A DNA stretch of 64,000 bases, taken from Candidatus Nomurabacteria bacterium. Its GTDB lineage: Bacteria; Patescibacteriota; Minisyncoccia; Phycocordibacterales; UBA918. Location: assembly GCA_020631995.1 (NCBI GenBank), contig JACKGJ010000001.1, forward strand, positions 97,753 through 161,752, in the 5' to 3' direction. The notes beneath the pieces were generated by a model. That model saw only the letters and a program-made list of their open reading frames with translations. It had not been told where the DNA came from and searched no databases. Shown piece after piece: positions 16,034-47,065 of the stretch; the stretch's first letter is position 1, and every line of letters starts with the position of its first letter. The position numbers and the translations under genes were made by a program.

Positions 16034-16128
16034 GAGTTCATACTAGCACTTTCAAGTCATTCAAATGTGTGACGCTTGAAATATTTGGGGATATATGGTA
16101 TGGTGTGCGCAAGCTTTTGATACTTGTG

Positions 16129-16342
16129 TGGTGTGAGAAAGCTTACAGTGCTTTCGCAAGACCTTTTGAGATATTTTGTAATTCCGAGCTTGTCGAGGAA
16201 GAAACAAAATATACAAAAGGTGTACCGCATCCGTAGGATGAGGAAGCCTGGGAGGCTTTCGCAAGACCTTGCCTGACAATTTATGAGGCGTATAAGCCTC
16301 TATCAATAAATGTCGATAAGGTGTACAGCGACTGTAAGTCGC
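16129..16342 (-). repeat. two tandem copies of the family 1 hairpin core (not tRNA-linked)
   Basis: Minus-strand reads CATCC-TAC-GGATG-C-GGTACACC + long hairpin ACCTTTTGTATATTTTGT/ACAAAATATCTCAAAAGGT + GGTCTTGCGAAAGC..., and GCGAC-TTACA-GTCGC-T-GTACACC + ACCTTATCGACATTTAT/ATAAATTGTCAGGCAAGGT + GGTCTTGCGAAAGC... Confidence 0.65.
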
Positions 16343-16483
16343 AACTACCTCAAGTTTCACCTAATATTACTATCCGCACACCCCTACAGCTACTTTACAT
16401 ACTATTAGAAGAGCGCTTGACGGCGCGATGAAAAGTGACGAGGGTAAACAAGGAGCGCAAGATGCGCTTCTAAAATTAAAATA

Positions 16484-17764
16484 ATGCAAACAAAATATTC
16501 CCGACCAGCCAGAAGTGGCGGTCGCCGTCCGTTTTCGGGTGGTGGCGCAACACGTTCAAGTGGAGGAGCATCACGACGTTTTTCAAGTGGAGGACGCTCT
16601 CAAGGTGGTTCTCGTTATCCATCTCGCGGTGGAGGTGGTGGAGGTGGACGTCGTAAGACCCCAACCTTTGACCCATCAAAATTTATAAATACTAATCCCC
16701 AGTCAGAAACTGAGGAAGTATACGAAGCAAAGAACCGTTTTTCCACTTTTGGTTTAAACGACCGCTTTGCTCGTGCCATCGTTGCCAACGGACTAGAAAT
16801 ACCTTCTCCAATTCAGGACCAGGTTATTCCACTTATTCTTGATGGTCACGATGTTATCGGACTAGCTGAAACTGGTACTGGTAAGACTGCTGCTTTCTTG
16901 GTTCCTTTGATTGAAAAGACTCTGCGTGATTATTCACGTCAGACTCTAATTTTAGCTCCAACTCGTGAACTTGCTATCCAGATTGAAGCTGAGCTTCGTA
17001 AGTTGGCTAGTAAAGAACGTATCTACTCAACAGTATGTGTTGGTGGTACCAGTATGCACCCACAAGTGCGCGCACTTCGTCGAAAAAACCATTTCGTTAT
17101 CGGTACTCCAGGGCGTGTCTTGGACCTAATCGAAAGAGGTTATATTAAGACCGAGAGCTTCAGTGCTGTCGTTCTTGATGAAGCTGACCGTATGCTTGAT
17201 ATGGGATTCATTACCGACATTCGTGAAATCTTAAAATCAATTCCAAAAGAACGTGACACCCTCTTCTTCTCTGCCACCATCACTGATGATGCTAAGAAGT
17301 TGGTTAACGACTTTATGAAGGACCCGAAGACTGTTTCAGTAAAGAAAAAGGATGTTATCAATAGCATCAAGCAAGATGTGGTCACTCACGGACATCATAA
17401 TAAGTTCGAAACACTAGCTAACCTTTTGAAACAACCAGAATTTGCTCGTGTAATTATCTTCGGAGCAATGAAACACAGTGTTGAAAAGCTGGCTAATGAA
17501 CTTACTGCCGCTGGAATCAAATCAGAATCGATTCACGGCAACAAGAGCCATCCACAACGACAACGTGCTTTAACCTCTTTCAAGAGTGGTCGGGTACAAG
17601 TATTGGTAGCGACAGACGTAGCTGCTCGTGGTATCCACGTCGACAACGTCACTCACGTTATAAACTACGATTTACCTAATACTTTTGAAGATTACGTACA
17701 CCGTATCGGTCGTACTGGTCGTGGCTCTAAGCGAGGTATCGCTCTCACTTTCGTAGCCGGTTAA
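16484..17764 (+). CDS. DEAD-box ATP-dependent RNA helicase with N-terminal Arg/Gly/Ser-rich tail
   Basis: AETGTGKT, VLDEADRMLDMGF, SAT, HRIGRTGR motifs; the first ~60 aa are RGG/RSS repeats. Confidence 0.9.
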   Translation: MQTKYSRPARSGGRRPFSGGGATRSSGGASRRFSSGGRSQGGSRYPSRGGGGGGGRRKTPTFDPSKFINTNPQSETEEVYEAKNRFSTFGLNDRFARAIVANGLEIPSPIQDQVIPLILDGHDVIGLAETGTGKTAAFLVPLIEKTLRDYSRQTLILAPTRELAIQIEAELRKLASKERIYSTVCVGGTSMHPQVRALRRKNHFVIGTPGRVLDLIERGYIKTESFSAVVLDEADRMLDMGFITDIREILKSIPKERDTLFFSATITDDAKKLVNDFMKDPKTVSVKKKDVINSIKQDVVTHGHHNKFETLANLLKQPEFARVIIFGAMKHSVEKLANELTAAGIKSESIHGNKSHPQRQRALTSFKSGRVQVLVATDVAARGIHVDNVTHVINYDLPNTFEDYVHRIGRTGRGSKRGIALTFVAG

Positions 17765-28608: not shown

Positions 28609-28830
28609 ACGTACTAAGAAATTATACTAACCACTTCACGTGCAAAGGTGAGAACGAGATTGAGTCCAGTAATCATAAAATCCACAAACAATTCCAATAG
28701 CTTGAGTAAGAAGTTGAGAAAAGTTTTGATGATAGCAATAAGGCTGTCCATAGGTAGATTTTATCATATGTTTATTGAAAGAAGGGACTTGGTCATGAAA
28801 ATTTTACTGCGTAAAATTTCTCGACCCGTG

Positions 28831-29076
28831 AAAAGCAAAACTGTTTGCTTTTCACCGCTTGGCTACGGCATCGCTCCGGTCTTCAAGTCCCTATACCAGC
28901 AAAGCAGTTGTTTGTGAGGGGACTTGAAACTTACAGTTTCAGTACACCTTTTCGATATTCCCCTTCACAAGTTCTGGGAATATCTGAAAAGGTCTTCAAG
29001 TCCCACAAGACAGTTCCCCGAACTGTCTTTTTCGCTCACACAAAATAAAAGCCCCCATTAGGGGGCTTTTATTTTG
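28831..29076 (+). repeat. tRNA-Asp-linked composite element (family 1 core plus copies of the tRNA-Asp T-arm/acceptor 3' half)
   Basis: GAAACT-TAC-AGTTTC hairpin, GTACACC, long hairpin ACCTTTTCGATATTCCCC/GGGAATATCTGAAAAGGT. Then TTCAAGTCCC, a 26-nt hairpin and TTCGCTCACACAAAATA, which together are the reverse complement of tRNA-Asp nt ~29071-29096. Extra GGGACTTGAA/TTCAAGTCCC copies at 28882-28926. Confidence 0.7.
29044..29076. terminator. bidirectional terminator next to the tRNA-Asp 3' end
   Basis: AAATAAAAGCCCCCATTAGGGGGCTTTTATTTTG. Confidence 0.75.
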
Positions 29077-29150
29077 CGCGAGCGAAGGGACTTGAACCCT
29101 CAACCTCTGCCGTGACAGGGCAGCGCTCTAACCAGTTGAGCTACGCCCGC
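29077..29150 (-). tRNA. tRNA-Asp (anticodon GTC)
   Basis: Acceptor GCGGGCG/CGCTCGC (G4:U69), anticodon stem CTGCC/GGCAG with loop CTGTCAC, T arm GAGGG-TTCAAGT-CCCTT, discriminator G. Confidence 0.9.
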
Positions 29151-29221
29151 AAAACGCTATATAAGCGGGCAAAGTATAGCCTGTTCAGACCGCTTTTTCA
29201 ATAGCCACGTAATATCGGTCA

Positions 29222-29384
29222 AATTTGTGTCGACGGGAGGGATGAAGCTTACAGCTTCCGTACACCTTTTCGATATTTCCTTTCATTACTTCAGGAAATA
29301 TCTGAAAAGGTCATCATTCTCTCCCGCGCACAAAATCACTCTTGCGCAAAGCTCCATGCATTCGCTTTACGCTCGGTGTTTTTG
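29222..29384 (+). repeat. tRNA-Met-linked composite element (family 1 core plus direct and inverted copies of the tRNA 3' half)
   Basis: 19-nt exact direct repeat TTTGTGTCGACGGGAGGGA at 29224-29242 and 29381-29399 (the latter inside the tRNA). GAAGCT-TAC-AGCTTC hairpin, GTACACC, 17-bp hairpin, then inverted copy TCATCATTCTCTCCCGCGCACAAAAT at 29311-29336. Confidence 0.7.
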
Positions 29385-29458
29385 TGTCGACGGGAGGGAA
29401 TGATCCTCCGACCTCGGCTTTATGAGTGCCGCGCTCTAACCAACTGAGCTACGTCGAC
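29385..29458 (-). tRNA. tRNA-Met or tRNA-Ile2 (anticodon CAT), elongator type
   Basis: Acceptor GTCGACG/CGTCGAC, D stem GCTC/GAGC (Y11:R24), anticodon loop CTCATAA, T arm GGAGG-ATCATTC-CCTCC (unusual A54/T58). Confidence 0.8.
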
Positions 29459-29500
29459 GTGTCAAGAGAATAGCATTAGACCACCCCTTGTTCAACCCAT

Positions 29501-29532
29501 AAACCAAAAAGCTACGCACAGCGTAGCTTTTT
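29501..29532 (-). terminator. terminator after the intron-containing tRNA
   Basis: AAAAAGCTACGC-TGT-GCGTAGCTTTTTGG on the minus strand. Confidence 0.75.
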
Positions 29533-29540
29533 GTTTCTTG

Positions 29541-29872
29541 TTGCGGGGCCTGGAATTGAACCAGGGTCTGGAGGTTCTGTTATTCGCTCACTTTCATGAG
29601 TGCATGGACTATCCCATATTCCTGGATTAAAATATCCTTAGGAACTCTCCATTATAGTCTCTGAACCTTCCGTCTGCTTTCGCAGAGGGCTTGGCTGCCG
29701 ATTGCCGAATCTTTACTTTTTTAAAGCATTCACACTCACCCTCTCAGGTCATGTTGTAGCAAGCAAAGCTCTAACGGTATTCCAGCAATTTAGAAGATTT
29801 TTCCATACCGCATTACTGCGATAGGTCACAGTTTCCTATGAGCCTCCCGAGGTACCACTCCTCTACCCCGCT
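29541..29872 (-). tRNA. tRNA(CAT) with initiator-like features, interrupted by a group I intron (exons 29872-29838 and 29576-29541)
   Basis: Spliced sequence gives AGCGGGG-TA-GAGG-AGTGGTA-CCTC-G-GGAGG-CTCATAA-CCTCC-AGAC-CCTGG-TTCAATT-CCAGG-CCCCGCA-A. Features: 1:72 mismatch (A:A) and A11:T24. Confidence 0.8.
29577..29837 (-). ncRNA. group I self-splicing intron (261 nt, no ORF) in the anticodon loop after CAU
   Basis: 5' exon ends in U and the intron ends in G. P1 UCAU/GUGA; P2 hairpin AUCGCA-GUAA-UGCGGU. Classical P/Q/R/S elements: AAAUUGCUGGAAU, AAUCGGCAGCC, GGUUCAGAGACUAUAAUGG, GGGAUAGUCC. Confidence 0.8.
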
Positions 29873-29974
29873 GTGTGCTGAAAGATTGTACCACTTACTA
29901 CCTAAAAGTCCAGCATTATCTCTTTGTGTAAGAAGCCTAAAATTTAGACGATTTCGAGGCACGCGAGGAAAATG

Positions 29975-30115
29975 GCACGAGCCGTATATGGACATACGGT
30001 GTGAGAAAGTCTAGGAGACTTTTGCAAGAGGTTGGCAGCTATTCTGACGCAAGGAAGAATAGCGACAACCTAAACAGCTTCTGTAAGAAGTGACATTTTG
30101 TCGAAGCGTAACAAA
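29975..30115 (-). repeat. hybrid repeat: CGTATATGGACATACG hairpin (family 2) plus a divergent family 1 core
   Basis: GTGTGAGAAAGTCTAGGAGACTTTTGCAAGAGG parallels 16129-16160. Hairpin GGTTGGCAGCTATTC/GAATAGCGACAACC replaces P3. CTTC-TGTAA-GAAG replaces P2. Confidence 0.45.
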
Positions 30116-34861: not shown

Positions 34862-35093
34862 CATCTAAAATTGGAGGCAGTTGTGCACCACAAGAGTACT
34901 TCCATTTTTATACTCCTTCCAGTCGTTAAAAATTTGGTCGTCGGTTGGAGGGATTTTTACGAGAGAGACGTATATAGATATACGGTGACTAAGACAACTT
35001 TCTGAAGCAAACGCATCACGGGCATTTCGTTTTTATAGTCGCACTGCGGCGCTCCTTAAAAACTAGTCACAATTCGCCCATTTGGGGGATTTA
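34862..35093 (+). repeat. family 2 rod-like element with extra module (shares a 46-nt identical block with 46914-46959)
   Basis: 34886-34931 is identical to 46914-46959 (CACCACAAGAGTACTTCCATTTTTATACTCCTTCCAGTCGTTAAAA). Contains CGTATATAGATATACG hairpin, CTGAAGC motif and CAATTCG end. Confidence 0.6.
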
Positions 35094-35096
35094 GTC

Positions 35097-35213
35097 TAAA
35101 CCTTAAAACTGGATGAGTGGCGAGGAGTTTAGGCGAACGAGTTGCGAGTGGGACATATTGTCCAACGAGCAACACGTTAGCCGTGACGACAAAGCCAGTC
35201 GCCAGTTTTAAGG
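35097..35213 (+). repeat. palindrome-ended element related to family 2
   Basis: 16-nt arms TAAACCTTAAAACTGG / CCAGTTTTAAGGTTTA enclose ATGAGTGGCGAGGAG...GGGACATATTGTCC...GACGACAAAG; abuts the stop of the last pilin-like gene. Confidence 0.5.
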
Positions 35214-35214
35214 T

Positions 35215-35871
35215 TTAGTACTCAATGGTGATTTCGCGTTGGATAGTGAAGATTGAATCCAACTGATCACAAGGTCGATTATAACCACGTGCAAAAATCA
35301 CTGTACAAATAGTTCCAGCGGTACATTCAATTGTTCCTAGCCCTTCATCAGTCAAATTATAAGAAAGGTCACTGTCAGCATCACGTAAGTCAGCAACATA
35401 AAGACTTGGTTCTGCACACTGGGTACTGTTTATAGTGTACTGATACTGATAGTTATATAAAAGACGGTCACTATTGTTAAACAGAGTAGTGGCTTGTACG
35501 CCAGGGGGGATATTCGGATTCATACCAGCACAAGCAACCGAAGGTGGCCAAGCGCCACTTTCTCTTAAAAATTGTTGCTTGGTTGTTGGTTGAGCTCTAT
35601 GATAACGCATACACTCGAGTCCGATCTGTGCTGACTGAAACGCTTTTTCTGATTCAATAGCAGTTACAGCCAAGAGATATTGTTTGGTTGTAACAAAGAG
35701 CAGTGATAGACCAATGGCCAGAACCACACTTACGACCACTAGAGTAATAAGTAGTGCAAAACCTCTGTTAGATTCTAGTTTTGTAGAAAGCCTGTTAGAG
35801 GAAAATAGCTTTGCATTTTTTTGCAAATGGGCAACTAAAAACTTTAAGTTAAAAACTGATTTAAGGTTCAT
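35215..35871 (-). CDS. PilX-like minor pilin / pilus-associated protein
   Basis: 218 aa; N-terminal NRGFALLITLVVVSVVLAIGLSLLF prepilin-like hydrophobic segment (no Glu5); last gene of the minor pilin set. Confidence 0.55.
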   Translation of the reverse strand: MNLKSVFNLKFLVAHLQKNAKLFSSNRLSTKLESNRGFALLITLVVVSVVLAIGLSLLFVTTKQYLLAVTAIESEKAFQSAQIGLECMRYHRAQPTTKQQFLRESGAWPPSVACAGMNPNIPPGVQATTLFNNSDRLLYNYQYQYTINSTQCAEPSLYVADLRDADSDLSYNLTDEGLGTIECTAGTICTVIFARGYNRPCDQLDSIFTIQREITIEY

Positions 35872-36508
35872 AATAAATATTATAAATATAACTTTCGAGA
35901 GTCACACTGTCAGAAGGATCATCGCCCCAAGAAACTTCTGATCGTACTCTAGCCAATGAATCGCTTACAGTGATTGAGAGTTCACGAGTATAGATTGTAG
36001 GTGTCCCTCCTGATGCCCGTTGTTTCAGTGGTACTCGAGCGCCTTCGTATTTATTAATTGCACAGTTACTACCACTACAGCGATAAAAACTACTGGTAGT
36101 AATAGATCCATCGTCACCGATTTGTACCCCGCACCTATCATCACCCCCTACAGGACACAAAGAAGCTATTGTGGTCATATTACCCCAAACATCTCCTAAG
36201 TCATTATATCCACTTGCATCCAACGCATCATCCTCGCGCAATTTAACTAGAGCCTCAATACCCTCTTGTGCCAAAAATACCGCCAACGTATTATCTTTTG
36301 ATTCAATCGCTCGCTTGAGTCCAGAATGAGCAATGGTAAGGGGACCCACTAATGCAATTAAGAGAACAGTAATTGCCACCAAGACTTCAACTAGTGAATA
36401 ACCCATCTGTTTAGTTGACAGTGACTCTGTGTGTTTAGAAGCAAAAAAACGCAAAACGATTTTTCGCGTATTGAGAACTAGAGACTTTATACTAAAACCT
36501 GTTTTCAT
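35861..36508 (-). CDS. prepilin-type minor pilin (PilV-like)
   Basis: QMG/YSLVEVLVAITVLLIAL class III signal peptide with Glu5. Confidence 0.65.
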   Translation of the reverse strand: MKTGFSIKSLVLNTRKIVLRFFASKHTESLSTKQMGYSLVEVLVAITVLLIALVGPLTIAHSGLKRAIESKDNTLAVFLAQEGIEALVKLREDDALDASGYNDLGDVWGNMTTIASLCPVGGDDRCGVQIGDDGSITTSSFYRCSGSNCAINKYEGARVPLKQRASGGTPTIYTRELSITVSDSLARVRSEVSWGDDPSDSVTLESYIYNIYYEP

Positions 36509-37134
36509 AAATCAAGCACTCGCTTAGTGATAGTAGTTTGGAGCATAAATCCTGATCCAGTCTGTCCAATACCAGCCACCTCTCCCTCTATAAAGATAGT
36601 AACATTTGGTTGAAGTAAGTTACCATCATCTTCCTTACGAGCGGTATTGGATACATTGAAGTGCATATTGGTTATATCAACTGTCGGATTAGTTAGCCTT
36701 ACCCACGAACCAGTACCAATTTTTCGTTCGATAGCTCCGCTAGATGAATTAAAACGATACGCAATACGTCTATTATTATCCCCGTCGGTCAGACTCTTGC
36801 CTCCCTCGATTATTGATAAATAAGTCCCTTTATTGCAACCTTGATGAGTATCAGCATCACCAGTGGTTTCTGTCCCGCTTGAACAATAGAATGCAAAACC
36901 AGTCCTGAGTTCACGTGCCATACTGTCTAGAGCAAACTGGATGTTACTAACTGATTCTTGGGTATTTTGAGCCTTAGCATTAGCGTTGATCAAAACCAGC
37001 AAGGCACCGATACCCATAGTGAGAACAACAGTAAAGAGGGCCATAGAAACCAGGAGTTCTATTAGGGAGAAACCTTTCTGAGAGACAGATTTCTGAACCA
37101 TTGTGACATCTAGTGAAAACTTGAAACCTAACAT
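36505..37134 (-). CDS. prepilin-type minor pilin (PilW-like)
   Basis: QKG/FSLIELLVSMALFTVVL class III signal peptide. Confidence 0.65.
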   Translation of the reverse strand: MLGFKFSLDVTMVQKSVSQKGFSLIELLVSMALFTVVLTMGIGALLVLINANAKAQNTQESVSNIQFALDSMARELRTGFAFYCSSGTETTGDADTHQGCNKGTYLSIIEGGKSLTDGDNNRRIAYRFNSSSGAIERKIGTGSWVRLTNPTVDITNMHFNVSNTARKEDDGNLLQPNVTIFIEGEVAGIGQTGSGFMLQTTITKRVLDL

Positions 37135-37136
37135 AA

Positions 37137-37727
37137 TTATTCGACAGTTATTTGGCCCGCAGTGTTTACTCGTACTAAACGACTTCCAGTATCGTTCAAT
37201 GTTGTAACTCCTATCACGCCCTCTGAAACGGTACCGTTATTCATTACAGCATCGAAATTGGGTCGCCTAAACGTAACTGACAGAGCACTCAAGGCGCAAT
37301 TTGAGCCATTACAAAGTTGGTTAATAGCGAAACGTGTATCCAATCTTCTAGTCTCTAATTCTTCGCCTTCATCATAGTAGCCGTCTTCATCACTGTCACG
37401 AAAAATGATATAGGTACCTGGCTCTGCCGTAGCAAAATATATTCCATATGGACGCCTGAATTCACCACTACTTCCAGTAGCTGATAGAGAGCGTGTTTGA
37501 ACTTCTCTGAGTTCCAATGCAATTTGAAAACTTTGGTTTTTAAGAAGAATCAAATTATTAAATGCTCCATAACGAATAGTTACAATGCCAGTAATTAAAC
37601 CGATAATTGCAGCAGTAACCAAAACCTCGAGGATGGAAAATCCGTTAGTCCCAAAAGGCAGATTACCTTTGAAACCCTTTCTCCTCCCTTTTAGGGTTAA
37701 GTAATATTGATTGTTAGAGGTTTCCAT
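37137..37727 (-). CDS. prepilin-type minor pilin (FimT/GspH-like)
   Basis: TNG/FSILEVLVTAAIIGLITG class III signal peptide. Confidence 0.65.
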   Translation of the reverse strand: METSNNQYYLTLKGRRKGFKGNLPFGTNGFSILEVLVTAAIIGLITGIVTIRYGAFNNLILLKNQSFQIALELREVQTRSLSATGSSGEFRRPYGIYFATAEPGTYIIFRDSDEDGYYDEGEELETRRLDTRFAINQLCNGSNCALSALSVTFRRPNFDAVMNNGTVSEGVIGVTTLNDTGSRLVRVNTAGQITVE

Positions 37728-38535
37728 AGAGTATCAAAATGGACTCCAGTACATTGGCATTAAAAAAGTAAACCATCACAAATGCCATAATCAAAAATGG
37801 CGCGAAGGGCACTTCACTTTTCATCTTAACACGACGAGTAGTACCAAAGCCGAGATACTTGTGTAGATTTATTTGTTGAAAGAGAATCAATGAAACACTT
37901 ATTAAAGCGCCCACCCAAAATGACCAAACTACTAATGAAAATAAGTCGCTTATTCCCACCAGCATCGCAAGACTCACTGCTAACTTAGCATCTCCTAGAC
38001 CAAGCCAGCGTCCGCCGGAAAACCACCATAATGAAAAGAAAAAAAGAAAAGCGACTAAACCTGAAAATAGCGATCCATAAAGCATACTCATACTGTTAAT
38101 TAACCACGCCTCATAGCCAACAATCAATAGAGCTAATATTGCTAAGATAAACGATAGTTCGTCAGGAATGATCATATGATATAGATCATAAATAACTACC
38201 ACCACTAAAACTGACATAAATAATGCAAGCAACAAGAAAACAACCAAATCAGCAGTACTAAGATAGGCCAAGAGAAATGTACCCGCGGTCAGCACCTCTA
38301 CCAAAGCGTAACGATATGGAATAAAAGACTGGCAAGAGCGACATCGCCCCCTAAGGATTAGATATGATAACAGTGGAAACAGCTCGTACCATTTAAGAGT
38401 AGTACCGCAAGACAAACAATGAGATCGATCATTTAGAGATCGGTTGGTATGAAAGCGGTAAATTACAACATTGAGAAAACTACCAATAATAAGTCCGAAC
38501 AACAACACAGTAAAAATGAAAAACCATTCTGGCAT
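37714..38535 (-). CDS. pilD: prepilin peptidase (A24 family, PilD)
   Basis: 273 aa; N-terminal GSFLNVVIYRF...CLSCGTTLKWYELFPLLSYL...RCRSC zinc-binding loop; polytopic with conserved Asp-containing segments. Confidence 0.85.
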   Translation of the reverse strand: MPEWFFIFTVLLFGLIIGSFLNVVIYRFHTNRSLNDRSHCLSCGTTLKWYELFPLLSYLILRGRCRSCQSFIPYRYALVEVLTAGTFLLAYLSTADLVVFLLLALFMSVLVVVVIYDLYHMIIPDELSFILAILALLIVGYEAWLINSMSMLYGSLFSGLVAFLFFFSLWWFSGGRWLGLGDAKLAVSLAMLVGISDLFSLVVWSFWVGALISVSLILFQQINLHKYLGFGTTRRVKMKSEVPFAPFLIMAFVMVYFFNANVLESILILYGNL

Positions 38536-38584
38536 AGGCTAAGTATACCCCCGACATCGGTCCTGAAGTGATGTTGTATGTAGA

Positions 38585-38622
38585 AAACTAAAACAAAAAC
38601 ACCCCACAAGTGGGGTGTTTTT
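38585..38622 (-). terminator. terminator after the second major pilin gene
   Basis: AAAAACACCCCACTTGTGGGGTGTTTTTG on the minus strand. Confidence 0.8.
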
Positions 38623-38649
38623 GTAGATACTATGTAGTACGTCTCCGGA

Positions 38650-39072
38650 TTACGGACAAACAGTGACTGCAGTAGTACTCCAACCAGATGTGTAGCTTTT
38701 TGCTTGACCTGTAGAGTCAACACAATAGTAATGTGCTGTATTAGACATCATACGTGCCTTCATAGCCCATTGAGTAGCGTTACTACTACAAACAGCATTA
38801 CCAGTTCCAGCCGAGGAATTAGCACCCGCTAACATAGTACCGATACCACCCGCTGCTGTACAAACGTTCGTATAAGCACGACCGTTGTTCTCATAATAAA
38901 GTTCTGCTTGTGCACGTGCATTGTTCAAATTGGACTTAGTAGCCGCGTCAGCTCCCTTATCACGAGCACTATTGAGTGAGGCCAACACTACTGAGGCCAA
39001 AATACCAATGATGGCAATAACCACTAGGAGCTCTATTAAGGTGAAACCGCGCCTGTATATTTGTTTAATCAT
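38650..39072 (-). CDS. pilA: type IV major pilin paralog 2
   Basis: MIKQIYRRG/FTLIELLVVIAIIGILASVVLASLNSARDKG; own TATAAT promoter and terminator. Confidence 0.85.
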   Translation of the reverse strand: MIKQIYRRGFTLIELLVVIAIIGILASVVLASLNSARDKGADAATKSNLNNARAQAELYYENNGRAYTNVCTAAGGIGTMLAGANSSAGTGNAVCSSNATQWAMKARMMSNTAHYYCVDSTGQAKSYTSGWSTTAVTVCP

Positions 39073-39210
39073 AAATGTAAATAATTACTTTATTTCATTT
39101 TACACCCTAGGAATTATAAAAAATTAAGGTATGTGAATAACTGAAGCTAAAGATAGATAATAAATTCAATCCATTTTTGACATCACATCAAAAACTCCTG
39201 AAGCCTTATA

Positions 39211-39240
39211 ACAAAAAACAGTGCCGAGGCACTGTTTTTG
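39211..39240 (-). terminator. terminator after the first major pilin gene
   Basis: CAAAAACAGTGCCTCGGCACTGTTTTTTG on the minus strand. Confidence 0.8.
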
Positions 39241-39283
39241 ACGCCAAAGGGGCGATCTATTGATTTAACTAAGCTAAACCTTT

Positions 39284-39685
39284 CTAACTAGCAGGACAAG
39301 CTGTTGATCCTGTAGTAATAGAGCTTGTGGTTGTAACAGCCTTTCCAGTCGAGTCAACACAGTACGAAGAAGTTGAAGCACTTGAAAGACCAGCGAAAGC
39401 TGCCCATACGTCAGCAGTGTCATTACACTCTCCACCAGCTGCAGTTACACCTTGTGCAACATTAGTGTCACTACAAACTCCTAAGTAACTACCACTGTTA
39501 TTATCGTAAAACAATTCAGCCTGTGCGCGAATGTTATTAAGGTTCGACTTTATGGCTGCGTCTTCTCCCTTGTCACGAGCACTGTTGAGTGAAGCCAACA
39601 CTACTGAGGCCAAAATACCAATGATGGCAATAACTACGAGGAGCTCGATGAGGGTGAAACCTCTTTTAAGTTTGTTCTTTATCAT
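39284..39685 (-). CDS. pilA: type IV major pilin paralog 1
   Basis: MIKNKLKRG/FTLIELLVVIAIIGILASVVLASLNSARDKG; C-terminal Cys pair. Confidence 0.85.
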   Translation of the reverse strand: MIKNKLKRGFTLIELLVVIAIIGILASVVLASLNSARDKGEDAAIKSNLNNIRAQAELFYDNNSGSYLGVCSDTNVAQGVTAAGGECNDTADVWAAFAGLSSASTSSYCVDSTGKAVTTTSSITTGSTACPAS

Positions 39686-39908
39686 ATAACTAATTATTTT
39701 ATAACTTTCCCGCTCCAGACATCAGCTGTGTGTCTCGAACAGAACATCCGTTTAATGGATACTATCAATTCTATAGCTATTCTTGGCCATTTTGTTCGAT
39801 GTGTGTGGATAAGACTAGTTTTTTAATGCTCTAGTTTTAAACTTAGAATGTAGTTTTGAAAAATCTGCATATAAACTTTCACAGTTGATCACGACTTAAA
39901 CTAACAGA

Positions 39909-40021
39909 GGATTTTTGGATGCAGTTGTACCAGCTACAAGGAGTTTCGTGCGGAAGGCGTATATGGACATACGACGACCAAGCGAAACGACTGAAGCTGG
40001 TGCAAATGCGCCGAAAATACC
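39909..40021 (+). repeat. family 2 rod-like element (compact copy) between pilC and the pilin gene
   Basis: GGATTTTTGG/CCGAAAATACC outer arms. ATGCAGTTGTACCAGC pairs with GCTGGTGCAAATGCG. Apical CGTATATGGACATACG hairpin. GACCAAGCGAAACGACTGAAGC core. Confidence 0.6.
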
Positions 40022-40023
40022 TG

Positions 40024-41232
40024 TTAGATTGAGGCGGTCATATTGTAGATAGGCAAAAGAACAGACGCCAACAAGGTTCCTACACCAAGACCAAGCATAA
40101 CAATCATTACTGGTTCAATCAGTCCAATCAAAGTGTCGACAGCATTGTTAACCTCACGTACGTAGAACGTTGCTAGTGTCTTCATAATTTCCGAAAGATT
40201 TCCAGTCTCTTCCCCAACTTTGGCCATCTGTGAAAGTACGCCAGGAATTTCAGGATATTCGGATAATGCATCAGCAAATGATCGTCCACCCTTAACTTCT
40301 ACTAAAGTATTTTGTAGGATTTCTTTATAGACAGCGTTGTCTACCACTTCAGCTGTAACTTCGAGTGCCTGCACCATAGAGATTCCACTTTGAAGCATTG
40401 TGGCTAAGTTGTCACAAATGCGGGCAAGATAAAGCTTTTGATAAAGGTCACCCAAATATGGCAAAGTGATTTTTAGCTCATCATAGGCTCGGAGTCCAAC
40501 TGGAGTTTTTATAAAACGCCAAAGGAACACTCCACCAATAGACGCAAGTGCTAATATCACTCCTATGTAATCAGTAAGGACAGTAGATATGGCTATGACA
40601 ATCTTTGTATAGATAGGCAATTCTTGACCGGAATCAAGAAGAATTTGACTAATACGAGGAATCACCATTGTTAGCATCAGACCCATCACAAGTATGAATA
40701 CACCAACAACGAAAGCTGGGTACACAAGAGCGTTTCGAGCTTTTGTTATCACCTGGTAGGTTCTGTCTAGATAATCCGCCAAGTAACCGAACGATTGTTC
40801 TAGAGAGCCAGACTCCTCACCAGCTCGTATCATATTTATATAGAAATCACTAAAGACATCGGGGTGTGCAGACATAGAACGTGAAATTGAACTACCAGCC
40901 TGCAAGTCATCGGCAATATCATTCAACACCTTTTGCATCTGCGGATTCTCAGCCTCAGTACCTAAAAGACGAAATATTCTAAGAGCAGACACCTGAGCAT
41001 CAAAAAGGGTGGCCAACTGACGGGACAGTATAACCACCTCCTTGTTTGATATACGTTGAAACCAATTAATTTCAAAATTTAAAAATTGTTGCTTCTCTTC
41101 TACCGGATCAATTGATATCACTGTATATCCGCGTTTTTGCACAGTCGCAATTGCAGCATCGATATTGCCAGCCTCGACAGTACCGTCACGCTTTACGTTA
41201 GTTTGGTCAATGGCTTTATAGGAGAACAACAT
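40024..41232 (-). CDS. pilC: type IV pilus platform protein PilC (GspF family)
   Basis: 402 aa; duplicated T2SS-F domain architecture with three TM segments. Confidence 0.9.
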   Translation of the reverse strand: MLFSYKAIDQTNVKRDGTVEAGNIDAAIATVQKRGYTVISIDPVEEKQQFLNFEINWFQRISNKEVVILSRQLATLFDAQVSALRIFRLLGTEAENPQMQKVLNDIADDLQAGSSISRSMSAHPDVFSDFYINMIRAGEESGSLEQSFGYLADYLDRTYQVITKARNALVYPAFVVGVFILVMGLMLTMVIPRISQILLDSGQELPIYTKIVIAISTVLTDYIGVILALASIGGVFLWRFIKTPVGLRAYDELKITLPYLGDLYQKLYLARICDNLATMLQSGISMVQALEVTAEVVDNAVYKEILQNTLVEVKGGRSFADALSEYPEIPGVLSQMAKVGEETGNLSEIMKTLATFYVREVNNAVDTLIGLIEPVMIVMLGLGVGTLLASVLLPIYNMTASI

Positions 41233-41375
41233 AGTTATAGCTATAGTTTAAGGTGAAAAGCTGAAAGTTCAAAGGTATAAAGCTGTGTTTAACTTAAATA
41301 GTATGACAGAGAGTTTTGGATGTGCGATGTCTAGAGAACCTATAAATGAGACTCAGTAGTTTTCATCGTTTAAAT

Positions 41376-42446
41376 TTAGATGAGACGTTCGAGACCTTTA
41401 GGATTTACAGAATATGCAAAAGCATTTTCAACCGTAATCTCACCTTTCTTAACCATATTCACTAGTGAACGGTTCATATCAATCATCCCATGTTCGAGAC
41501 CAGTCTCAATTACTGTCTGCACCTCATGTGTACGTCGCTCACGAATCAGGTTAGCGATAGCGCTGTTGTTTATCAAGAGTTCGTAAGCAGGTACCATACC
41601 TCCTTGGATACGAGGAACTAAGCGTTGCGAAAAAATACCAGTGAGCGATCCAGCCAACTGCACACGTATCTGGTCTTGCTGACCAGCTGGAAAACTATCG
41701 ATAATACGATCAATCGTCTGTGACGCGTTATTTGTGTGCAAAGTTGAAAATACCAAATGTCCTGTCTCGGCAGCAGTTACAGCGGTTGCAATCGTTGCCG
41801 GATTACGCATCTCCCCCACAAGAATCACATCAATGTCTTGGCGGAAAATGGCATTCAGGCCGGTAGCGAAGTCGACAGTATCAGTACCAACCTCGCGTTG
41901 TTCGATTAATGCCTGATCTGGTGTATACACATACTCAATAGGATCTTCAATAGTGACGATATGGTCAGGACGACTTTTATTAATCAACTGAATCATCGCC
42001 GCCAATGTAGTTGACTTACCTTGGCCGACTGGACCTACACAAAGAAAGAAGCCCTGAGGTCTTTCGGTAAAGCTTGCAAGGATTGGGGGTAGGTTTAACT
42101 CTTCTAAAGATTTTATTTCGTTTGGAATATGACGGAGCGCAACAGCTGGAGTACCTTGTTGGTGATAAGCATTGCCACGGAAACGCACCCCATCTGGGGC
42201 AGCGAAAGAAAAGTCTACTTCCTTGTCATTTGTAAACTCAGCTCCCTTCTGTTCAGAAAGGAGCACGCCACAAAAACCCATCACGTCTTCTGATGTCAAA
42301 ACAGGCTTCTTCACCAACGGCACTAACGAGCCCATTACCCTAACTACAGGATGAGACCCGACCGACAAGTGTATATCAGAACCTTTTTCCGATACTACGA
42401 TATCTATTAAATCTGCTAGTTCTTTTCTGTAATCTACATTGGCCAT
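41376..42446 (-). CDS. pilT: twitching motility/retraction ATPase PilT
   Basis: 356 aa; GPVGQGKSTT Walker A, ILVGEMRN Asp box, FSTLHTN His box. Confidence 0.9.
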   Translation of the reverse strand: MANVDYRKELADLIDIVVSEKGSDIHLSVGSHPVVRVMGSLVPLVKKPVLTSEDVMGFCGVLLSEQKGAEFTNDKEVDFSFAAPDGVRFRGNAYHQQGTPAVALRHIPNEIKSLEELNLPPILASFTERPQGFFLCVGPVGQGKSTTLAAMIQLINKSRPDHIVTIEDPIEYVYTPDQALIEQREVGTDTVDFATGLNAIFRQDIDVILVGEMRNPATIATAVTAAETGHLVFSTLHTNNASQTIDRIIDSFPAGQQDQIRVQLAGSLTGIFSQRLVPRIQGGMVPAYELLINNSAIANLIRERRTHEVQTVIETGLEHGMIDMNRSLVNMVKKGEITVENAFAYSVNPKGLERLI

Positions 42447-42532
42447 AATTTAAAATTAAAAAGTCAAAATTTAGAATGATAATTAAACATATAAAGGTTT
42501 ACGCTTGACGGTATGTATCAAAAGAGGGCATA

Positions 42533-42898
42533 TTATTTACTACATAACTCCTCCACACGCTTGACCACCTCGCTAGGTATTACTTCGGCTTTTATAATGT
42601 AACCCACGGCGCCAGCCTCATTTGCAGCTGACTGGTCTCCCGCTTCACTTTGATTTGAGAGAACCACGTATTTAGTGCTATTCGTTAAACCTAATTTTTT
42701 AATCTCTTCCAAAAGATCAAGTCCACTCATTCCTGGCATTATCATATCCAACAGAACAACATCGTAATCAGCTTCCTTTATAGACCTCATAGCCTCAGTA
42801 GCATCTGTTGCAGTATCAACTTGATGGCCAGATTCAATGAATTTGGTAGCGTACATATCCCTAAGAAAGGCATCATCATCTACCAGTAAGAGTTTCAT
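42533..42898 (-). CDS. single-domain response regulator (CheY-like receiver)
   Basis: MKLLLVDDD..., DVVLLDMIMPGMSG, terminal GYIIKA; start set at the internal ATG. Confidence 0.8.
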   Translation of the reverse strand: MKLLLVDDDAFLRDMYATKFIESGHQVDTATDATEAMRSIKEADYDVVLLDMIMPGMSGLDLLEEIKKLGLTNSTKYVVLSNQSEAGDQSAANEAGAVGYIIKAEVIPSEVVKRVEELCSK

Positions 42899-43145
42899 TG
42901 CATTATAAGTAAGACGCGGAAAATAAACTCCGCATACCCACACTTAAAAAGCTGTTAATATGGTTTCGACCAGACATCTCTAGATCAAGAGTCGCACGAT
43001 CGTTTCTTCCTAAAACATCCATACCATTCATTATACAACATCACTTTTGGCATAGTGTTGGAGGTGGGTATAGTAAAAACTTCGCTCGCCTGATTCTCTA
43101 CTATCTAAATCTTCATAAAGAAGGACACACGAGCTATACCCACGA

Positions 43146-44999: not shown

Positions 45000-45044
45000 T
45001 TTGTGGTTATTTATTACACCAGAACGTCAATCATTAAAGAATAA

Positions 45045-45329
45045 TTAATCAGAAAAAGGATTAGGACGTCCAGATGAAACGGCTTCTGGACTAGTTTCGA
45101 AGGACACTAAAGAGCGGAATTTTGCATTATCGAAAAAATCACGGGATAGACTGATGTTTTGAATCTCATTGAGTCGCAAGAGAAATTCTGTTGCAAGAAA
45201 CTCGCCTTCACTTACACCACCGTCTACTTCGAGATTAGATTCACTGTTAAGTGTAAAAATGTAATACCCAGCATAAAGTACCCCAGCCAGAATTGTAAAA
45301 ATTAAAATGTTTTTAACTAAGGATGACAT
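45045..45329 (-). CDS. hypothetical pilus-cluster membrane protein (94 aa)
   Basis: One TM helix; in the position where PilP-like genes occur; no family recognised. Confidence 0.5.
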   Translation of the reverse strand: MSSLVKNILIFTILAGVLYAGYYIFTLNSESNLEVDGGVSEGEFLATEFLLRLNEIQNISLSRDFFDNAKFRSLVSFETSPEAVSSGRPNPFSD

Positions 45330-45338
45330 AATTTATCT

Positions 45339-45962: not shown

Positions 45963-45964
45963 AA

Positions 45965-46729: not shown

Positions 46730-46738
46730 ATGTATTTC

Positions 46739-46744
46739 ATTATA
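46739..46744 (-). promoter_or_regulatory. -10 box (TATAAT) 9 nt upstream of the pilN-like ATG
   Basis: Minus-strand read GGCGTATAATGAAATACATATGGCA. Confidence 0.45.
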
Positions 46745-46886
46745 CGCCTACTCTGCAAATCGCTTTTATACTCTCTGTGGACAAGGTTTATAAACACTGG
46801 ACGTTCAGTCACTGCAACTTCACCTACCCCTGCGACCATACAGACAACTTTTGTAAAATTAAAATGAGGATGTGACATTATCTAAT

Positions 46887-47065
46887 AAATCCTCCAAATG
46901 AGATGAAGTTGTTCACCACAAGAGTACTTCCATTTTTATACTCCTTCCAGTCGTTAAAACTTTGGTCGTTTGCTGGAGGGAGGACTACGCGGAAGACGTA
47001 GAAAGAACTACGGCGACCAAGTAGTCCGACTGAAGCGAAGACAAATTCGCTCATTTGGAGGATTT
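46887..47065 (+). repeat. family 2 rod-like element (long copy) between pilM and pilN
   Basis: Perfect 16-nt arms AAATCCTCCAAATGAG / CTCATTTGGAGGATTT. ATGAAGTTG...GACCAAG...GACTGAAGCGAAGACAAATTCG core. 46-nt block identical to 34886-34931. Overlaps the pilM stop by 2 nt. Confidence 0.65.

Follow-up and report, generated by a model that had tools for sequence, protein, structure and literature searches.

Directly behind 5 of the 10 tRNA genes in the window (the whole 64,000-nucleotide stretch of DNA analysed here), those for Asp, Met, Ser-GCT, Ser-ACT, and Phe, lies an antisense copy of the tRNA's own 3' part, and these loci belong to a family of small structured repeats that extends across the Patescibacteria. 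Within the scope of Rfam 15 and the open-access literature, the conserved hairpin element is undescribed and constitutes a new family supported by covariation. As the best explanation, which we put forward tentatively on the basis of sequence comparison, the element may be a non-autonomous integrating mini-element in which a hairpin formed by the sense and antisense tRNA copies (X:antiX) would serve as the attachment site and rebuild the tRNA 3' half.

Architecture of the element and its structured module

The elements are about 75–250 nt in size and sit directly 3' of tRNA genes on the tRNA-sense strand, where they follow the order tRNA(A+X1)–loop/terminator–antiX–M–X2, X1 being the tRNA's own 3' part from T54 onward. 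AntiX, which adjoins the 5' side of the module M, is the Watson-Crick antisense of a segment of the neighbouring tRNA that starts at T54, spans the acceptor 3' strand, and extends into the trailer; it is frequently split by a small variable hairpin (hp3). X2 adjoins the 3' side of M and is a sense copy of the same tRNA segment. Both junctions of M fall at T54, the start of the T-loop, and this boundary is constant over dozens of tRNAs and genomes. In all copies, M consists of GACC, a P3 hairpin with a bulged A, GGUGUAC, and a P2 hairpin with the loop CUGUAAG; the GUAC after P3 is invariable, and the only constant ends of the element are GACC and the P2 hairpin. The same core is paired with about 20 different tRNAs, and in the surveyed loci every antiX is followed by an M variant. 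The copies are gene-less, and mosaic, nested, and tandemly duplicated forms occur.

The core is a structured module with strong covariation: 186 double-change cells were counted compared with 42 in shuffles, and none of 500 shuffles reached as high a value. The asymmetry of the G.U/G.T pairs (39:13, 43:9, and 97:32) identifies the tRNA-sense strand as the functional one; the core had originally been written out on the other strand, and the structured strand is its reverse complement. As the loop lengths of the various copies are no multiples of three, the core is not a coding motif, and a protein-coding reading was discarded. A sigma-70 promoter reading (CTTACA-18-GATATT) was also discarded, as the match is weak and leaves the conserved spacer and the covariation unaccounted for.

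Direct repeats between X1 and X2 comprise 13–32 nt of tRNA sequence, with exact runs of 19–32 nt that reach into the trailer (19 nt at Met and Ser-ACT, and 23 and 32 nt at the related loci L035 and L007, respectively), and they score at least 20 in about 17 of the 31 tRNA-linked copies. The tRNA is usually more similar to X2 than to antiX.

Copies within the window

For the Asp and Met loci, all parts of the elements given in the preliminary description were recovered (Table 1). At Asp, the two portions of antiX are the reverse complement of the trailer and acceptor 3' strand (TTCGCTCACACAAAATA, 29031–29047) and that of the T-stem 3' strand and T-loop (TTCAAGTCCC, 28995–29004), with GGTC at 28991–28994. 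The terminator behind this tRNA forms the apex of the X1:antiX palindrome, a hairpin of about 36 bp with a computed dG of −67 kcal/mol (z −15.3), and X2 overlaps the 3' arm of P2. The second unit behind tRNA-Asp contains another GGGACTTGAA (28882–28891), a GC-rich variant start GACCGGAGCGAUGCCG (28866–28880), and two AT-rich hairpins ending in AUGACC, and it carries a third direct copy (CAAGTCCCTTC, 28782–28793) that abuts DNA conserved in the relative L099; two or three nested or serial units are stacked at this tRNA. At Met, the hairpin at the apex of the X1:antiX palindrome is not terminator-like, and its loop motif recurs in the Ser-GCT unit at 51640–51664; the family consensus of this loop-hairpin motif is GAAUACUUGGA, and it is also present in many CPR loci. 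The Met direct copy is identical over 19 nt (TTTGTGTCGACGGGAGGGA, 29224–29242 = 29381–29399), and X2 and antiX close a three-way junction via P1 (dG −48.2, z −8.2 by folding). The trailer part of the Met antiX is closer to the L099 trailer than to the window's own Met trailer, and it fits X1 and L099 better than X2.

Table 1. Positions of the elements and their parts in the window
Feature	Position	Strand	Details
tRNA-Asp(GTC), X1 from T54	29076–29150	−	ARAGORN; Rfam tRNA, 69.8 bits
Asp apex, intrinsic bidirectional terminator	29043–29075	−	A-tract, GC hairpin, U-tract; terminator scan, fold
antiX of tRNA-Asp	28995–29047	−	split by 26-nt hp3, 29005–29030
Module M, Asp copy	28923–28994	−	cmsearch with model R1: 81.5 bits, E 7e-18
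X2 of tRNA-Asp	28914–28927	−	short direct copy of T-loop and T-stem 3' strand (TTCAAGTCCCCTCA)
Second, diverged unit behind tRNA-Asp	28779–28891	−	partial P3-like match, 28797–28822 (cmsearch)
tRNA-Met(CAT), X1	29384–29458	−	ARAGORN, Rfam
Met apex hairpin	29344–29372	−	loop is conserved motif GAAUGCAUGGA
antiX of tRNA-Met, diverged	29313–29339	−	TCATCATTCTCTCCCGCGCACAAAATCAC
Module M, Met copy	29241–29312	−	cmsearch: 82.8 bits, E 4e-18
X2 of tRNA-Met	29221–29246	−	direct copy including 5 nt of trailer
tRNA-Ser(GCT) unit	51454–51764	−	tRNA 51677–51764; loop hairpin 51640–51664; antiX 51605–51632; M 51532–51604; X2 remnant 51454–51465
tRNA-Ser(ACT) unit	51150–51433	−	tRNA 51346–51433, then terminator-like hairpin
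antiX of tRNA-Ser(ACT)	51295–51313 and 51259–51271	−	split by hp3, 51272–51294
Ser-ACT variant start	51243–51257	−	AACCGGAACGAUGCCG; P3-like hairpin 51179–51215
X2 of tRNA-Ser(ACT)	51150–51168	−	19 nt exact
tRNA-Phe unit	7003–7265	+	tRNA 7003–7076; terminator 7087–7106
antiX of tRNA-Phe	7107–7126 and 7150–7162	+	first part 20 nt exact; split by hp3, 7127–7149
Phe diverged module		+	P3-like hairpin 7228–7265
Two tandem canonical units without tRNA link	16100–16345	+	GGUGUGAG-hp3-CGCAAGACC-P3-GGUGUAC-P2
Diverged canonical unit, antisense to tRNA operon	29990–30094	+	cmsearch: 36.9 bits, E 6.5e-7

The core GTACACCTTTTCGATATT matches the window five times at up to 3 mismatches, where 0.08 matches are expected, and a sixth, diverged core copy at 30028–30094 was found by cmsearch beyond these five exact cores, making six full copies of the core module. 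The core had been described as shared between tRNA loci, which is correct for three of the five exact cores, whereas those at 16160–16244 and 16265–16345 precede a DEAD-box helicase gene. The latter two form a tandem pair that lies behind a conserved promoter-like site and before the helicase ORF (16484–17764); the relative L074 has one unit at this locus, and a 9-nt AAGGTGTAC repeat borders the additional unit of the window. In the unit antisense to the tRNA operon, the P3 sequence is nearly all replaced by compensated pairs. That paralogues of the same genome differ by many compensated pairs (for example, P3 at 30028–30094 compared with 16265–16345) looks like long-term structural selection and not recent transposition.

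The tRNAs for Phe and Ser-ACT also have an inverted copy behind them, and their modules are diverged. At Ser-GCT, the P2 loop holds a 70-nt nested insert (51468–51539); a search for it as another repeat family gave no second copy among the sequences of the window and related loci. The direct copy reported on the far side of the module is strong at Met and Ser-ACT, short at Asp (about 13 nt), and reduced to a remnant at Ser-GCT.

Match between each element and its own tRNA

That the flanks match the cognate tRNA, as the first reading of the sequence had proposed, is far from chance. When the downstream regions were aligned locally to reverse-complemented tRNA 3' halves, the best scores were 32–49 for the own tRNA at all five loci (Asp, Met, Ser-GCT, Ser-ACT, and Phe) compared with 12–20 for other tRNAs. 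At related CPR loci, about 50 of 115 tRNAs score at least 22 against their own 3' half, compared with 3 in a mismatched control. At nine of nine non-Watson-Crick acceptor pairs, including the Ala G3.U70 pair, antiX carries the Watson-Crick partner of the 3' strand, and the 5' arm of the element does not copy the tRNA 5' strand. Furthermore, antiX complements the genomic trailer and not CCA, indicating that it derives from DNA, and on this ground we excluded a primer-binding-site or retroelement origin.

The nine-of-nine result, together with the lack of any Rfam tRNA-model match on the element, weakens the earlier suggestion of a tRNA-mimicking non-coding RNA and led us to reject a tRNA or tRNA-like mimic for charging. 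A decayed tandem tRNA copy or a T-loop intron was rejected on the same strand test and on in silico excision, as deletion of the element never reconstituted a tRNA. The right flank consists of the acceptor 3' strand plus trailer, which excludes an IS200/IS605-style insertion into the antisense strand of the tRNA, and has no complement of the variable and anticodon region. Pairing of the 5' flank with the 3' flank is not a general rule (the median score against the own flank, 13, is the same as in the control) and holds only in tRNA-linked copies.

Distribution and turnover among relatives

A genome scan with the exact pattern yielded 95 loci, all in Patescibacteria (CPR) MAGs and spread over several named CPR candidate groups. 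A cyanobacterial origin, to which the group I intron in a tRNA had seemed to point, was rejected on this distribution. The pattern had no match in 2.9 million viral contigs, and phage carriage was dismissed for this reason. Copy number per genome is low, roughly that of the tRNA genes. About 40% of the exact-pattern copies have no tRNA inside the retrieved locus; canonical copies carry GGGUGAG...CGCAA at the antiX position. Neighbouring tRNAs are co-oriented with the element in 54 cases as opposed to 7, and ORF neighbours are unbiased.

Both occupied and empty alleles, as looked for in mobile DNA, were found at orthologous sites for tRNA-Ser(GCT), which lies beside a malic-enzyme gene. The site is occupied in five loci (the window, L104, L107, L108, and L111) and cleanly empty in three (L106, L109, and L110), and in L106 the conserved downstream DNA resumes 9 nt past the tRNA. 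Between the window/L104 and L107/L108/L111, X1, antiX, and X2 of this tRNA have changed together, and the L111 copy is a mosaic. In L099, a whole segment is replaced, with a LAGLIDADG gene and a foreign tRNA-Asp at the site. Sense copies of tRNA 5' parts flank some copies (L058, L043, L076, and L033); judged from their sequences, these look like products of tandem duplication plus deletion and not of integration. Left junctions with such fragments fall at varied positions with GAG/GGG microhomology, and L043 has a tandem duplication of about 75 nt. In L068, the element lies in frame inside a pilin-like leader ORF.

Searches for known families and linked genes

In cmscan searches against Rfam 15 at the gathering score, the window and 15 related loci gave only tRNA, tmRNA, and group I intron matches, and permissive scans (E ≤ 10 and E ≤ 5) of 28700–29950 and of L022 4780–5200 gave nothing credible on the element, which excludes a known RNA family within Rfam 15. 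The open-access full-text literature yielded no description of such an element, in agreement with the original remark that no element of this design was known. A T-box or tRNA-sensing riboswitch was ruled out, since there is no Rfam T-box match and the downstream genes are tRNAs or unrelated housekeeping genes. The family has neither family-wide terminal inverted repeats nor a short target-site duplication, and its flanks vary from locus to locus and copy the adjacent tRNA; it is therefore not a classical MITE, an alternative that the preliminary description had named as a possible refutation. TIGR-Tas systems have been reported from parasitic bacteria (PMC12045711), and an RNA-guided system of this type was rejected as the copies are single or double and have no neighbouring effector gene.

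A Pfam scan of 34 window ORFs (including 30 of the 42 ORFs of at least 150 aa) and the neighbours of the 95 loci revealed no transposase, integrase, or RT and no phage gene near the element. No recurrent recombinase was found among ORFs lying up to 2.5 kb from the 95 loci, where the neighbour clusters were housekeeping families only, and neither the 64-kb window nor the surroundings of these loci yielded a RAYT or IS200/IS605 (HUH Y1) gene. Inspection of the element by eye gave no visible attC R''/R' or dif-like consensus. Of the two marks of a tRNA-integrating element, the one present is the tRNA 3' part repeated in direct orientation on either side of the insert; the other, an integrase or recombinase in or beside the element, was not found among the ORFs covered.

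Origin and possible function

How could a gene-less unit acquire both a sense and an antisense copy of the tRNA that it adjoins? We suggest that the unit X–loop–antiX–M may be non-autonomous mobile DNA that enters a tRNA gene by recombination at the edge of the T-loop, either homology-driven or catalysed by a host recombinase. The incoming X would provide the new tRNA 3' half, trailer, and often terminator, and the resident 3' half would be displaced downstream as X2. When single-stranded, X and antiX could fold into a duplex copy of the target, a hairpin-form attachment site comparable to CTX-phage attP(+) or integron attC, M forming the other, structured loop of a dumbbell. A working tRNA would remain only where the integrated X fits the tRNA 5' half, which would enforce the cognate match, and later gene conversion may keep X1, antiX, and X2 in step. 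The polarity of an attachment site predicts co-orientation with tRNA neighbours and no bias towards ORFs, and the strand-asymmetric G.T pairs and the covariation are compatible with a single-stranded DNA hairpin in this role. Against the mini-element, no recombinase was identified and no circular or excised form was seen, and the matching of antiX to about 20 tRNAs needs re-templating, gene conversion, or many specialised sublineages. The compensated differences between paralogues, the copies with no tRNA in the retrieved locus, the flanking sense copies of tRNA 5' parts, the frequent lack of a terminator ahead of the element, and the low copy number also count against it.

Serial site-specific integration scars, one of three candidates in the preliminary description, come closest to this explanation. 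The flanking direct repeats, the serial Asp units, and the occupied and empty alleles agree with it. The loci are nevertheless no scars of larger islands, as the whole insert is a conserved structured unit of 75–250 nt with no linked integrase. We regard it as very improbable, and already largely refuted, that these loci are decayed attL/attR scars of ordinary large integrative elements or prophages that used the tRNA genes. Direct repeats of the tRNA 3' half that start in the T-loop are an established trait of tRNA-integrating elements (as in the sublocation classes reported by Williams 2002), and the gene and foreign tRNA at the L099 site point in the same direction, but the insert is only 150–600 nt, always has the same conserved structured module inside, and lacks integrase or phage genes nearby and matches in viral contigs, and integrase scars leave the inverted copy unexplained.

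Replication errors offer a rival account that we consider unlikely, in which the element neither moves nor is under selection as a whole. Here M would be a spacer hairpin long conserved in CPR tRNA operons, and the sense and antisense tRNA fragments would be by-products of template switching at hairpins, later homogenised by gene conversion; palindromes would be extended at terminators, tandem-inversion-duplication-like events would occur, and M copies would recombine unequally. The varied, microhomologous junctions of the sense tRNA 5' fragments, the L043 duplication, the repeat bounding the window's extra unit relative to L074, and the centring of the palindromes on hairpins all suit such events. 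They do not predict a T54 boundary that stays constant at either end of M over many tRNAs and genomes, an M variant after every antiX, or the clean empty site of L106.

A stronger rival, possible if still somewhat doubtful, takes the element for a cis-acting RNA domain that lies in tRNA transcripts and benefits the host, in a 3' external or internal transcribed spacer; the antisense processing or regulatory device of the preliminary description lives on in it. The three segments X1, antiX, and X2 would compete for pairing in the manner of an attenuator, each pairing excluding the others. Prompt folding and processing of the tRNA would lead to the antiX:X2 three-way junction, otherwise antiX would invade the tRNA 3' half, and the outcome would set processing, decay, or read-through to the next tRNA or gene, with M as a protein-binding or tertiary-structure scaffold. 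There is no intrinsic terminator between tRNA and element in 22 of the 31 tRNA-linked copies, which makes an RNA role quite possible, but strong intrinsic terminators stand ahead of the element in the other 9, including Asp and Phe in the window. Element and tRNAs share a strand, the G.U asymmetry and the covariation suit RNA, and the concerted changes in X1, antiX, and X2 at Ser(GCT) are as expected of pairing partners; however, antiX is frequently decayed, as at Met, so that pairing is not tightly maintained. The paralogues have diverged deeply with their structure kept, P1 closes a stable three-way junction, the copies at 16100 follow the promoter-like site as a 5' leader, and the P2 loop UGUAA may fit the generic T-loop pentanucleotide pattern. 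Against these points, presence at the same tRNA is patchy among close relatives, and copies lie antisense to operons (30028–30094) and within an ORF (L068).

More specific still, and held with little confidence, is a choice between two devices. Either a new class of gene-less mobile DNA, a dumbbell or circle of about 200 nt, would integrate into and excise from tRNA T-loops by means of host enzymes, its stem a self-carried duplex of the tRNA-gene 3' half and its second loop M, and would rewrite 3' ends and terminators across Patescibacteria, or X1, antiX, and X2 would form an RNA switch whose three partners could read out the folding or processing state of the preceding tRNA.

Patescibacteria genomes are tiny and have very little repetitive DNA, and the module nonetheless recurs several times in 64 kb. 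If mobile, it would rank with the smallest integrating elements that are self-contained and would enter an essential gene without harm, by bringing along a hairpin copy of its target from which the gene is rebuilt; this would explain turnover of tRNA 3' ends, trailers, terminators, and even whole tRNA genes. If an RNA device, it would add a new form of regulation or quality control linked to tRNAs. In both cases, it is a new family that genome annotators currently miss and a possible marker for CPR contigs.

Comparison with known systems

Structured MITE-like repeats, such as REP/BIME, REPINs with RAYT, Correia, ERIC, Rickettsia palindromic elements, cyanobacterial small dispersed repeats, and fungal mitochondrial double-hairpin elements, are also short, gene-less, hairpin-forming, and intergenic, are sometimes nested or within genes, vary in presence, and are often co-transcribed. 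In contrast to them, the present element has no fixed terminal inverted repeats or short target-site duplication, its flanks are locus-specific tRNA copies, its copy number is low, and its core is conserved across several CPR candidate groups and not one species. The distal repeats of E. coli tyrT and the GC-rich palindromes of Neurospora mitochondria are tRNA 3'-end copies or palindromes beside tRNA genes, for which processing roles have been proposed; unlike the present family, they are not known to have a conserved multi-hairpin module or T54-bounded sense and antisense pairs, and they are confined to single loci or organelles.

With tRNA-targeting islands and prophages, the element shares direct repeats that start in the T-loop, the supply of a new gene 3' end, and serial stacking, whereas it is gene-less, only 0.1–0.3 kb long, has an inverted att copy, and serves about 20 tRNAs with one core. 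The CTX-phage type of IMEX (integrative mobile elements exploiting Xer) and the integron attC site resemble it in another way. There, two inverted copies on one DNA strand pair to give a folded, duplex attachment site, which recombines with a chromosomal target in double-stranded form; the reaction is carried out by host or trans-acting recombinases and depends on structure in one strand only. The integrated form keeps an inverted copy beside the regenerated target, and the order A–X1–loop–antiX–M–X2 is the layout so expected, the likeness being one of anatomy alone. The present element differs in having as its target the tRNA T-loop and 3' half in place of dif or attI, in a stem that copies the tRNA of each locus and not a fixed XerC/XerD or R''/R' consensus, and in carrying no cargo gene.

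Antisense and Sense Copies of the tRNA 3' Half

A preliminary description of the window had placed, behind tRNA-Asp and tRNA-Met, structured elements that carry sense and antisense copies of each tRNA's own 3' half; the sequences it quoted were found in place, including the identical 19-nt stretches at the Met locus (table below). For each tRNA, the 3'-terminal 25 nt together with the next 10 nt of trailer were compared, in both orientations, with the 390 nt downstream of every tRNA. Against a background of 12–20 for other tRNAs, inverted copies of the own tRNA scored 40 for Phe, 32 for Asp, 34 for Met, 38 for Ser(ACT) and 49 for Ser(GCT), and direct copies scored in the same way gave 39 for Met and 38 for Ser(ACT). 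Because unrelated tRNAs match so much less well, the observation stands, and it extends further: tRNA-Phe and tRNA-Ser(ACT), absent from the earlier list, are built alike, with a 23-nt hairpin between the acceptor and T-stem parts of their inverted copies, and in related CPR loci (given L numbers here) the antisense copy is present at ~50 of 115 tRNAs, compared with 3 in a mismatched control.

The order on the tRNA-sense strand is the tRNA (5' part A, then X1, which runs from T54 to the tRNA 3' end), a trailer, a loop hairpin, the antisense copy (antiX), a conserved structured module (M, comprising hairpins P3 and P2) and a downstream sense copy (X2). The loop hairpin is either a true intrinsic terminator (e.g. 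Asp and Phe) or carries the conserved loop GAAUACUUGGA (e.g. Met and Ser(GCT)). The antiX segment is the reverse complement of the trailer, acceptor 3' strand, T-stem 3' strand and T-loop, often split near position 65/66 by a small variable hairpin (hp3); in nearly all of the ~50 cases it ends at T54, abutting GACC, the remainder abutting a GC-rich variant, GNCCGGAGCGAUG. At nine of nine non-Watson-Crick acceptor pairs, antiX complements the 3' strand and in no case carries the actual 5'-strand base, so it is a true inverted duplicate, or antisense segment, and a decayed tRNA copy is ruled out. X2 follows P2 directly or after an additional hairpin ending UGUGAC, is recognizable in ~17 of 31 tRNA-linked copies, and is mostly nearer the tRNA sequence than antiX. 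Predicted folds support this A-X1-loop-antiX-M-X2 layout: the Asp locus forms a ~36-bp X1:antiX hairpin from which hp3 branches off, with P3 and P2 after it (dG −67 kcal/mol, z −15.3), and in the Met element, folded alone, antiX:X2 closes a three-way junction (z −8.2). Copies with no tRNA nearby have GGGUGAG-hp3-CGCAA where antiX would stand. At many loci (e.g. L094, L090, L091, L035 and L007) a conserved trailer motif, A-CGAACGAA-GUGAG, begins 1–3 nt past the 3' end of various tRNAs in various genomes; allowing up to 2 mismatches, 0.78 Mb contains 33 matches. Canonical elements likewise start with GUGAG.

Besides 10 tRNAs and a tmRNA, ARAGORN and Rfam place in the window a group I intron within one more tRNA. 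With up to 3 mismatches allowed, the window has five copies of the core string GTACACCTTTTCGATATT (0.08 expected), and a search with a covariance model of M returned six full modules and three partial P3-like hairpins.

Location of the features in the window and in related loci
Feature	Location (strand)	Description
Identical 19-nt stretches	29224-29242; 29381-29399	Met locus
Core copies, tRNA-linked (n = 3)		behind tRNA-Asp, tRNA-Met and tRNA-Ser(GCT)
Core copies, not tRNA-linked (n = 2)	16160-16345	tandem pair
Full module copy	30028-30094	nearly all P3 pairs swapped for compensated pairs
Conserved stretch	16040-16100 (+)	strongly conserved with L074; promoter-like TTGAAA-17-TATGGT just upstream of tandem elements
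Promoter-like site	29173-29201 (-)	TTGAAA-17-TATACT, 10/12 matches; between Met element and tRNA-Asp
Segment replaced in L099	29330-28775	Met element, tRNA-Asp and Asp elements
Replacing segment	L099 6400-7150	free-standing LAGLIDADG homing-endonuclease ORF, very different tRNA-Asp, plain terminator
Intron-split tRNA gene	29540-29900 (-)	uncalled by ARAGORN; Rfam Intron_gpI 29585-29849, 61.4 bits
tRNA-Ser(ACT)	51346-51433 (-); L104 2222-2309	unusual anticodon; 240 nt downstream of tRNA-Ser(GCT); own terminator, antiX, hp3, 19-nt direct copy
Insert in Ser(GCT) P2 loop	51468-51539; L111 ~4600-4670	70 nt
Type IV pilus/competence-type cluster	35000-48200	large; PilM, two T2SSE ATPases, T2SSF, prepilin peptidase
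tmRNA	60995-61374	tag ANKAIPSPFSYGFAFARA
tRNA-Thr(CGT)-like gene	L033 4480-4650 (+)	~54-nt T-arm insert; uncalled by ARAGORN
Element in pilin-like ORF	L068 4709-4900	in frame within extended N-terminal leader of type IV pilin-like ORF (...KRSVKPSHG/FTLIELLVV)

The exons of the intron-split gene resemble, by eye, a tRNA with a CAU anticodon; the gene heads an operon running on to tRNA-Met and tRNA-Asp, and a similar group I intron is found in L010. Because of the promoter-like site before it, tRNA-Asp is probably a separate transcription unit, and the site upstream of the tandem elements would make these the 5' leader of a DEAD-box helicase gene. In the pilin-like ORF, the 3' arm of hp3 supplies G-F-T codons and the 5' arm is an inverted copy of them.

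Structure and Strand of the Conserved Module

An alignment of 96 distinct copies resolves M, on the tRNA-sense strand, into GACC-P3(bulged A)-GGUGUAC-N-P2(loop CUGUAAG), where P3 is a long hairpin of ~8 + 8 bp flanking a bulged base and P2 has a 5-bp stem capped by a loop of 7 nt. Paired cells make up 96.4%, falling to 56% when partners are shifted by one column; cells changed on both sides number 186 compared with 42 in shuffles (0 of 500 reach 186), and all five P2 pairs covary. Folding the reverse complement of the GTACACC strand makes G.U (G.T) pairs 3–5 times commoner than folding the other strand (39 versus 13 in P3, 43 versus 9 in P2, and 97 versus 32 in the hairpin region beyond). This asymmetry identifies the structured strand as that of the neighboring tRNA, with which the orientation of tRNA neighbors (54 co-oriented, 7 opposite) is consistent; ORF neighbors are unbiased. 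Just below the P3 apex (alignment columns ~21–47), ~70% of copies have a conserved GAG...CGAA strand pair, e.g. UGAGCGAAGCGAAA, a candidate that may represent a tandem G.A or kink-turn-like protein-binding motif.

The main rival to a mobile origin is a device acting at the RNA level, in which alternative pairing of X1, antiX and X2 could link the way a tRNA folds or is processed to decay or read-through. These segments have the classic three-part design for alternative pairing and co-vary, and 22 of the 31 tRNA-linked copies have no terminator-like feature between tRNA and element, so the element must often be co-transcribed. However, strong terminators precede it at Asp and Phe, the Met antiX is decayed, and certain copies lie antisense to operons or within an ORF. 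The two readings are compatible, since an element that moves can function in RNA as well.

Range of the Family

A pattern search of one genome per species gave 95 loci, every one in a Patescibacteria (CPR) MAG, which rules out a cyanobacterial family; the named groups are Saccharibacteria, Paceibacteria, Kaiserbacteria, Lloydbacteria, Nomurabacteria, Taylorbacteria and Vogelbacteria. The window itself is identical to contig JACKGK010000003.1 of GCA_020632025.1. No copies occur in the viral contigs scanned. The family is conserved across several named CPR candidate groups and is unannotated; Rfam 15, at gathering and permissive thresholds, has no family matching the copies in the window or canonical ones elsewhere, and we found no description of such an element in open-access full text. 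Housekeeping genes make up the ORFs adjoining the 95 loci, and no recombinase, transposase or reverse transcriptase recurs among them; 34 window ORFs compared with Pfam (including 30 of the 42 of at least 150 aa) are all ordinary, with no recombinase.

Turnover among Relatives

Eight loci syntenic with tRNA-Ser(GCT) were fetched through malic-enzyme homologues, of which L112 stops short of the tRNA region. The window, L104 (95% malic-enzyme amino-acid identity to the window), L107 (90%), L108 (88%) and L111 (86%) carry M, and L106 (92%), L109 (85%) and L110 (83%) lack it; in L106 the downstream DNA conserved in other genomes resumes 9 nt past the tRNA. Such empty sites in close relatives also count against an RNA-level device. 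In every occupied genome antiX and X2 fit that genome's own tRNA-Ser 3' half (CCCTCCUUUUCCGC in the window, CCUUUCGGCUCCGC in the others) despite common quirks, an extra U in antiX and a GAAAUUCC T-loop variant in X2, so the three tRNA-derived segments evolve in concert, with gene conversion as the putative cause. The P2-loop insert is missing in L104 and has no further copy among the sequences compared, and L111 is a mosaic of a window-like left part and an L107-like M variant. The tRNA-Ser(ACT) gene occurs only in the window and L104, being absent from L106–L111; it may have arisen by recent duplication or be a tRNA carried by an element.

At the 16100 locus the window has two units and L074 one, the extra 101 nt being bounded by repeated AAGGTGTAC. 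In L099, whose neighboring protein is 92% identical, tRNA-Met and ~50 nt beyond are retained, and the exchange that follows points to replacement of a whole tRNA gene. The element therefore comes and goes among relatives, nests, duplicates and recombines module by module. Upstream of a few copies stand, instead, sense copies of a downstream tRNA's 5' part: a 30-nt exact repeat in L058, a ~75-nt tandem duplication in L043, and tRNA pseudogene copies interrupted by the element in L076 and L033. The T-arm insert of the tRNA-Thr-like gene in L033 holds GACC...CUGUAA, a miniature relative of M, and upstream lies a second copy of its 5' part with a full element between D-arm and anticodon arm.

A third reading, passive template switching and unequal recombination about an old spacer hairpin, accounts for microhomology junctions and tandem duplications but leaves the constant T54 boundaries without explanation. 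As for the serial-integration scars put forward in the preliminary description, the idea is partly supported: the direct repeats and patchy occupancy fit integration at tRNAs, whereas scars of large islands are essentially excluded.

A Proposed Small Integrating Unit

The anatomy yields two concrete, testable mechanistic proposals. Beside the RNA-level device, the reading we favor as the likelier is a unit of circular order X-loop-antiX-M that would recombine, where X begins, with a tRNA gene, for which A-X1-loop-antiX-M-X2 is exactly the expected product. This one assumption would explain why both junctions lie at T54, why the element keeps a fixed orientation to tRNAs, why the direct repeat extends into the trailer and why no gene is linked. 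It would also explain why the trailer and loop on the tRNA side pair with antiX but the trailer beyond X2 is different, as in L016 and at Met, where antiX fits X1 and L099 better than X2. Folded as a single strand, X with antiX would give a double-stranded copy of the target. A self-folded duplex of this kind is the principle of CTX-phage attP(+), used with XerCD, and of integron attC sites, and a hairpin attachment site would account for selection on the structure of one strand. A functional tRNA would result only where X fits the resident 5' half; as non-fitting integrations would break the tRNA, selection would enforce cognate pairing. We observe the anatomy and its strand, covariation, cognate matches, mosaicism and patchy occupancy, and we infer a circle or hairpin intermediate, a recombinase and the direction of events. 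The weak points of the integrating unit are that it has neither an enzyme nor a free form, that it gives no account of antiX retargeting to ~20 tRNAs, that paralogues are deeply diverged yet compensated, and that many copies are distant from tRNAs.

Comparison with Known Systems

In its proposed working, the closest likeness is to hairpin-att integrating elements and tRNA-targeting islands, and in appearance to structured MITE-type repeats. The element differs from the first in showing no dif or attC consensus by eye, from the islands in having no integrase, and from MITE-type repeats in having neither fixed terminal repeats nor a short target duplication. We classify it as a small non-autonomous, structure-dependent repeat or mobile element, the design of which is unusual in that it carries both strands of the target tRNA's 3' half.
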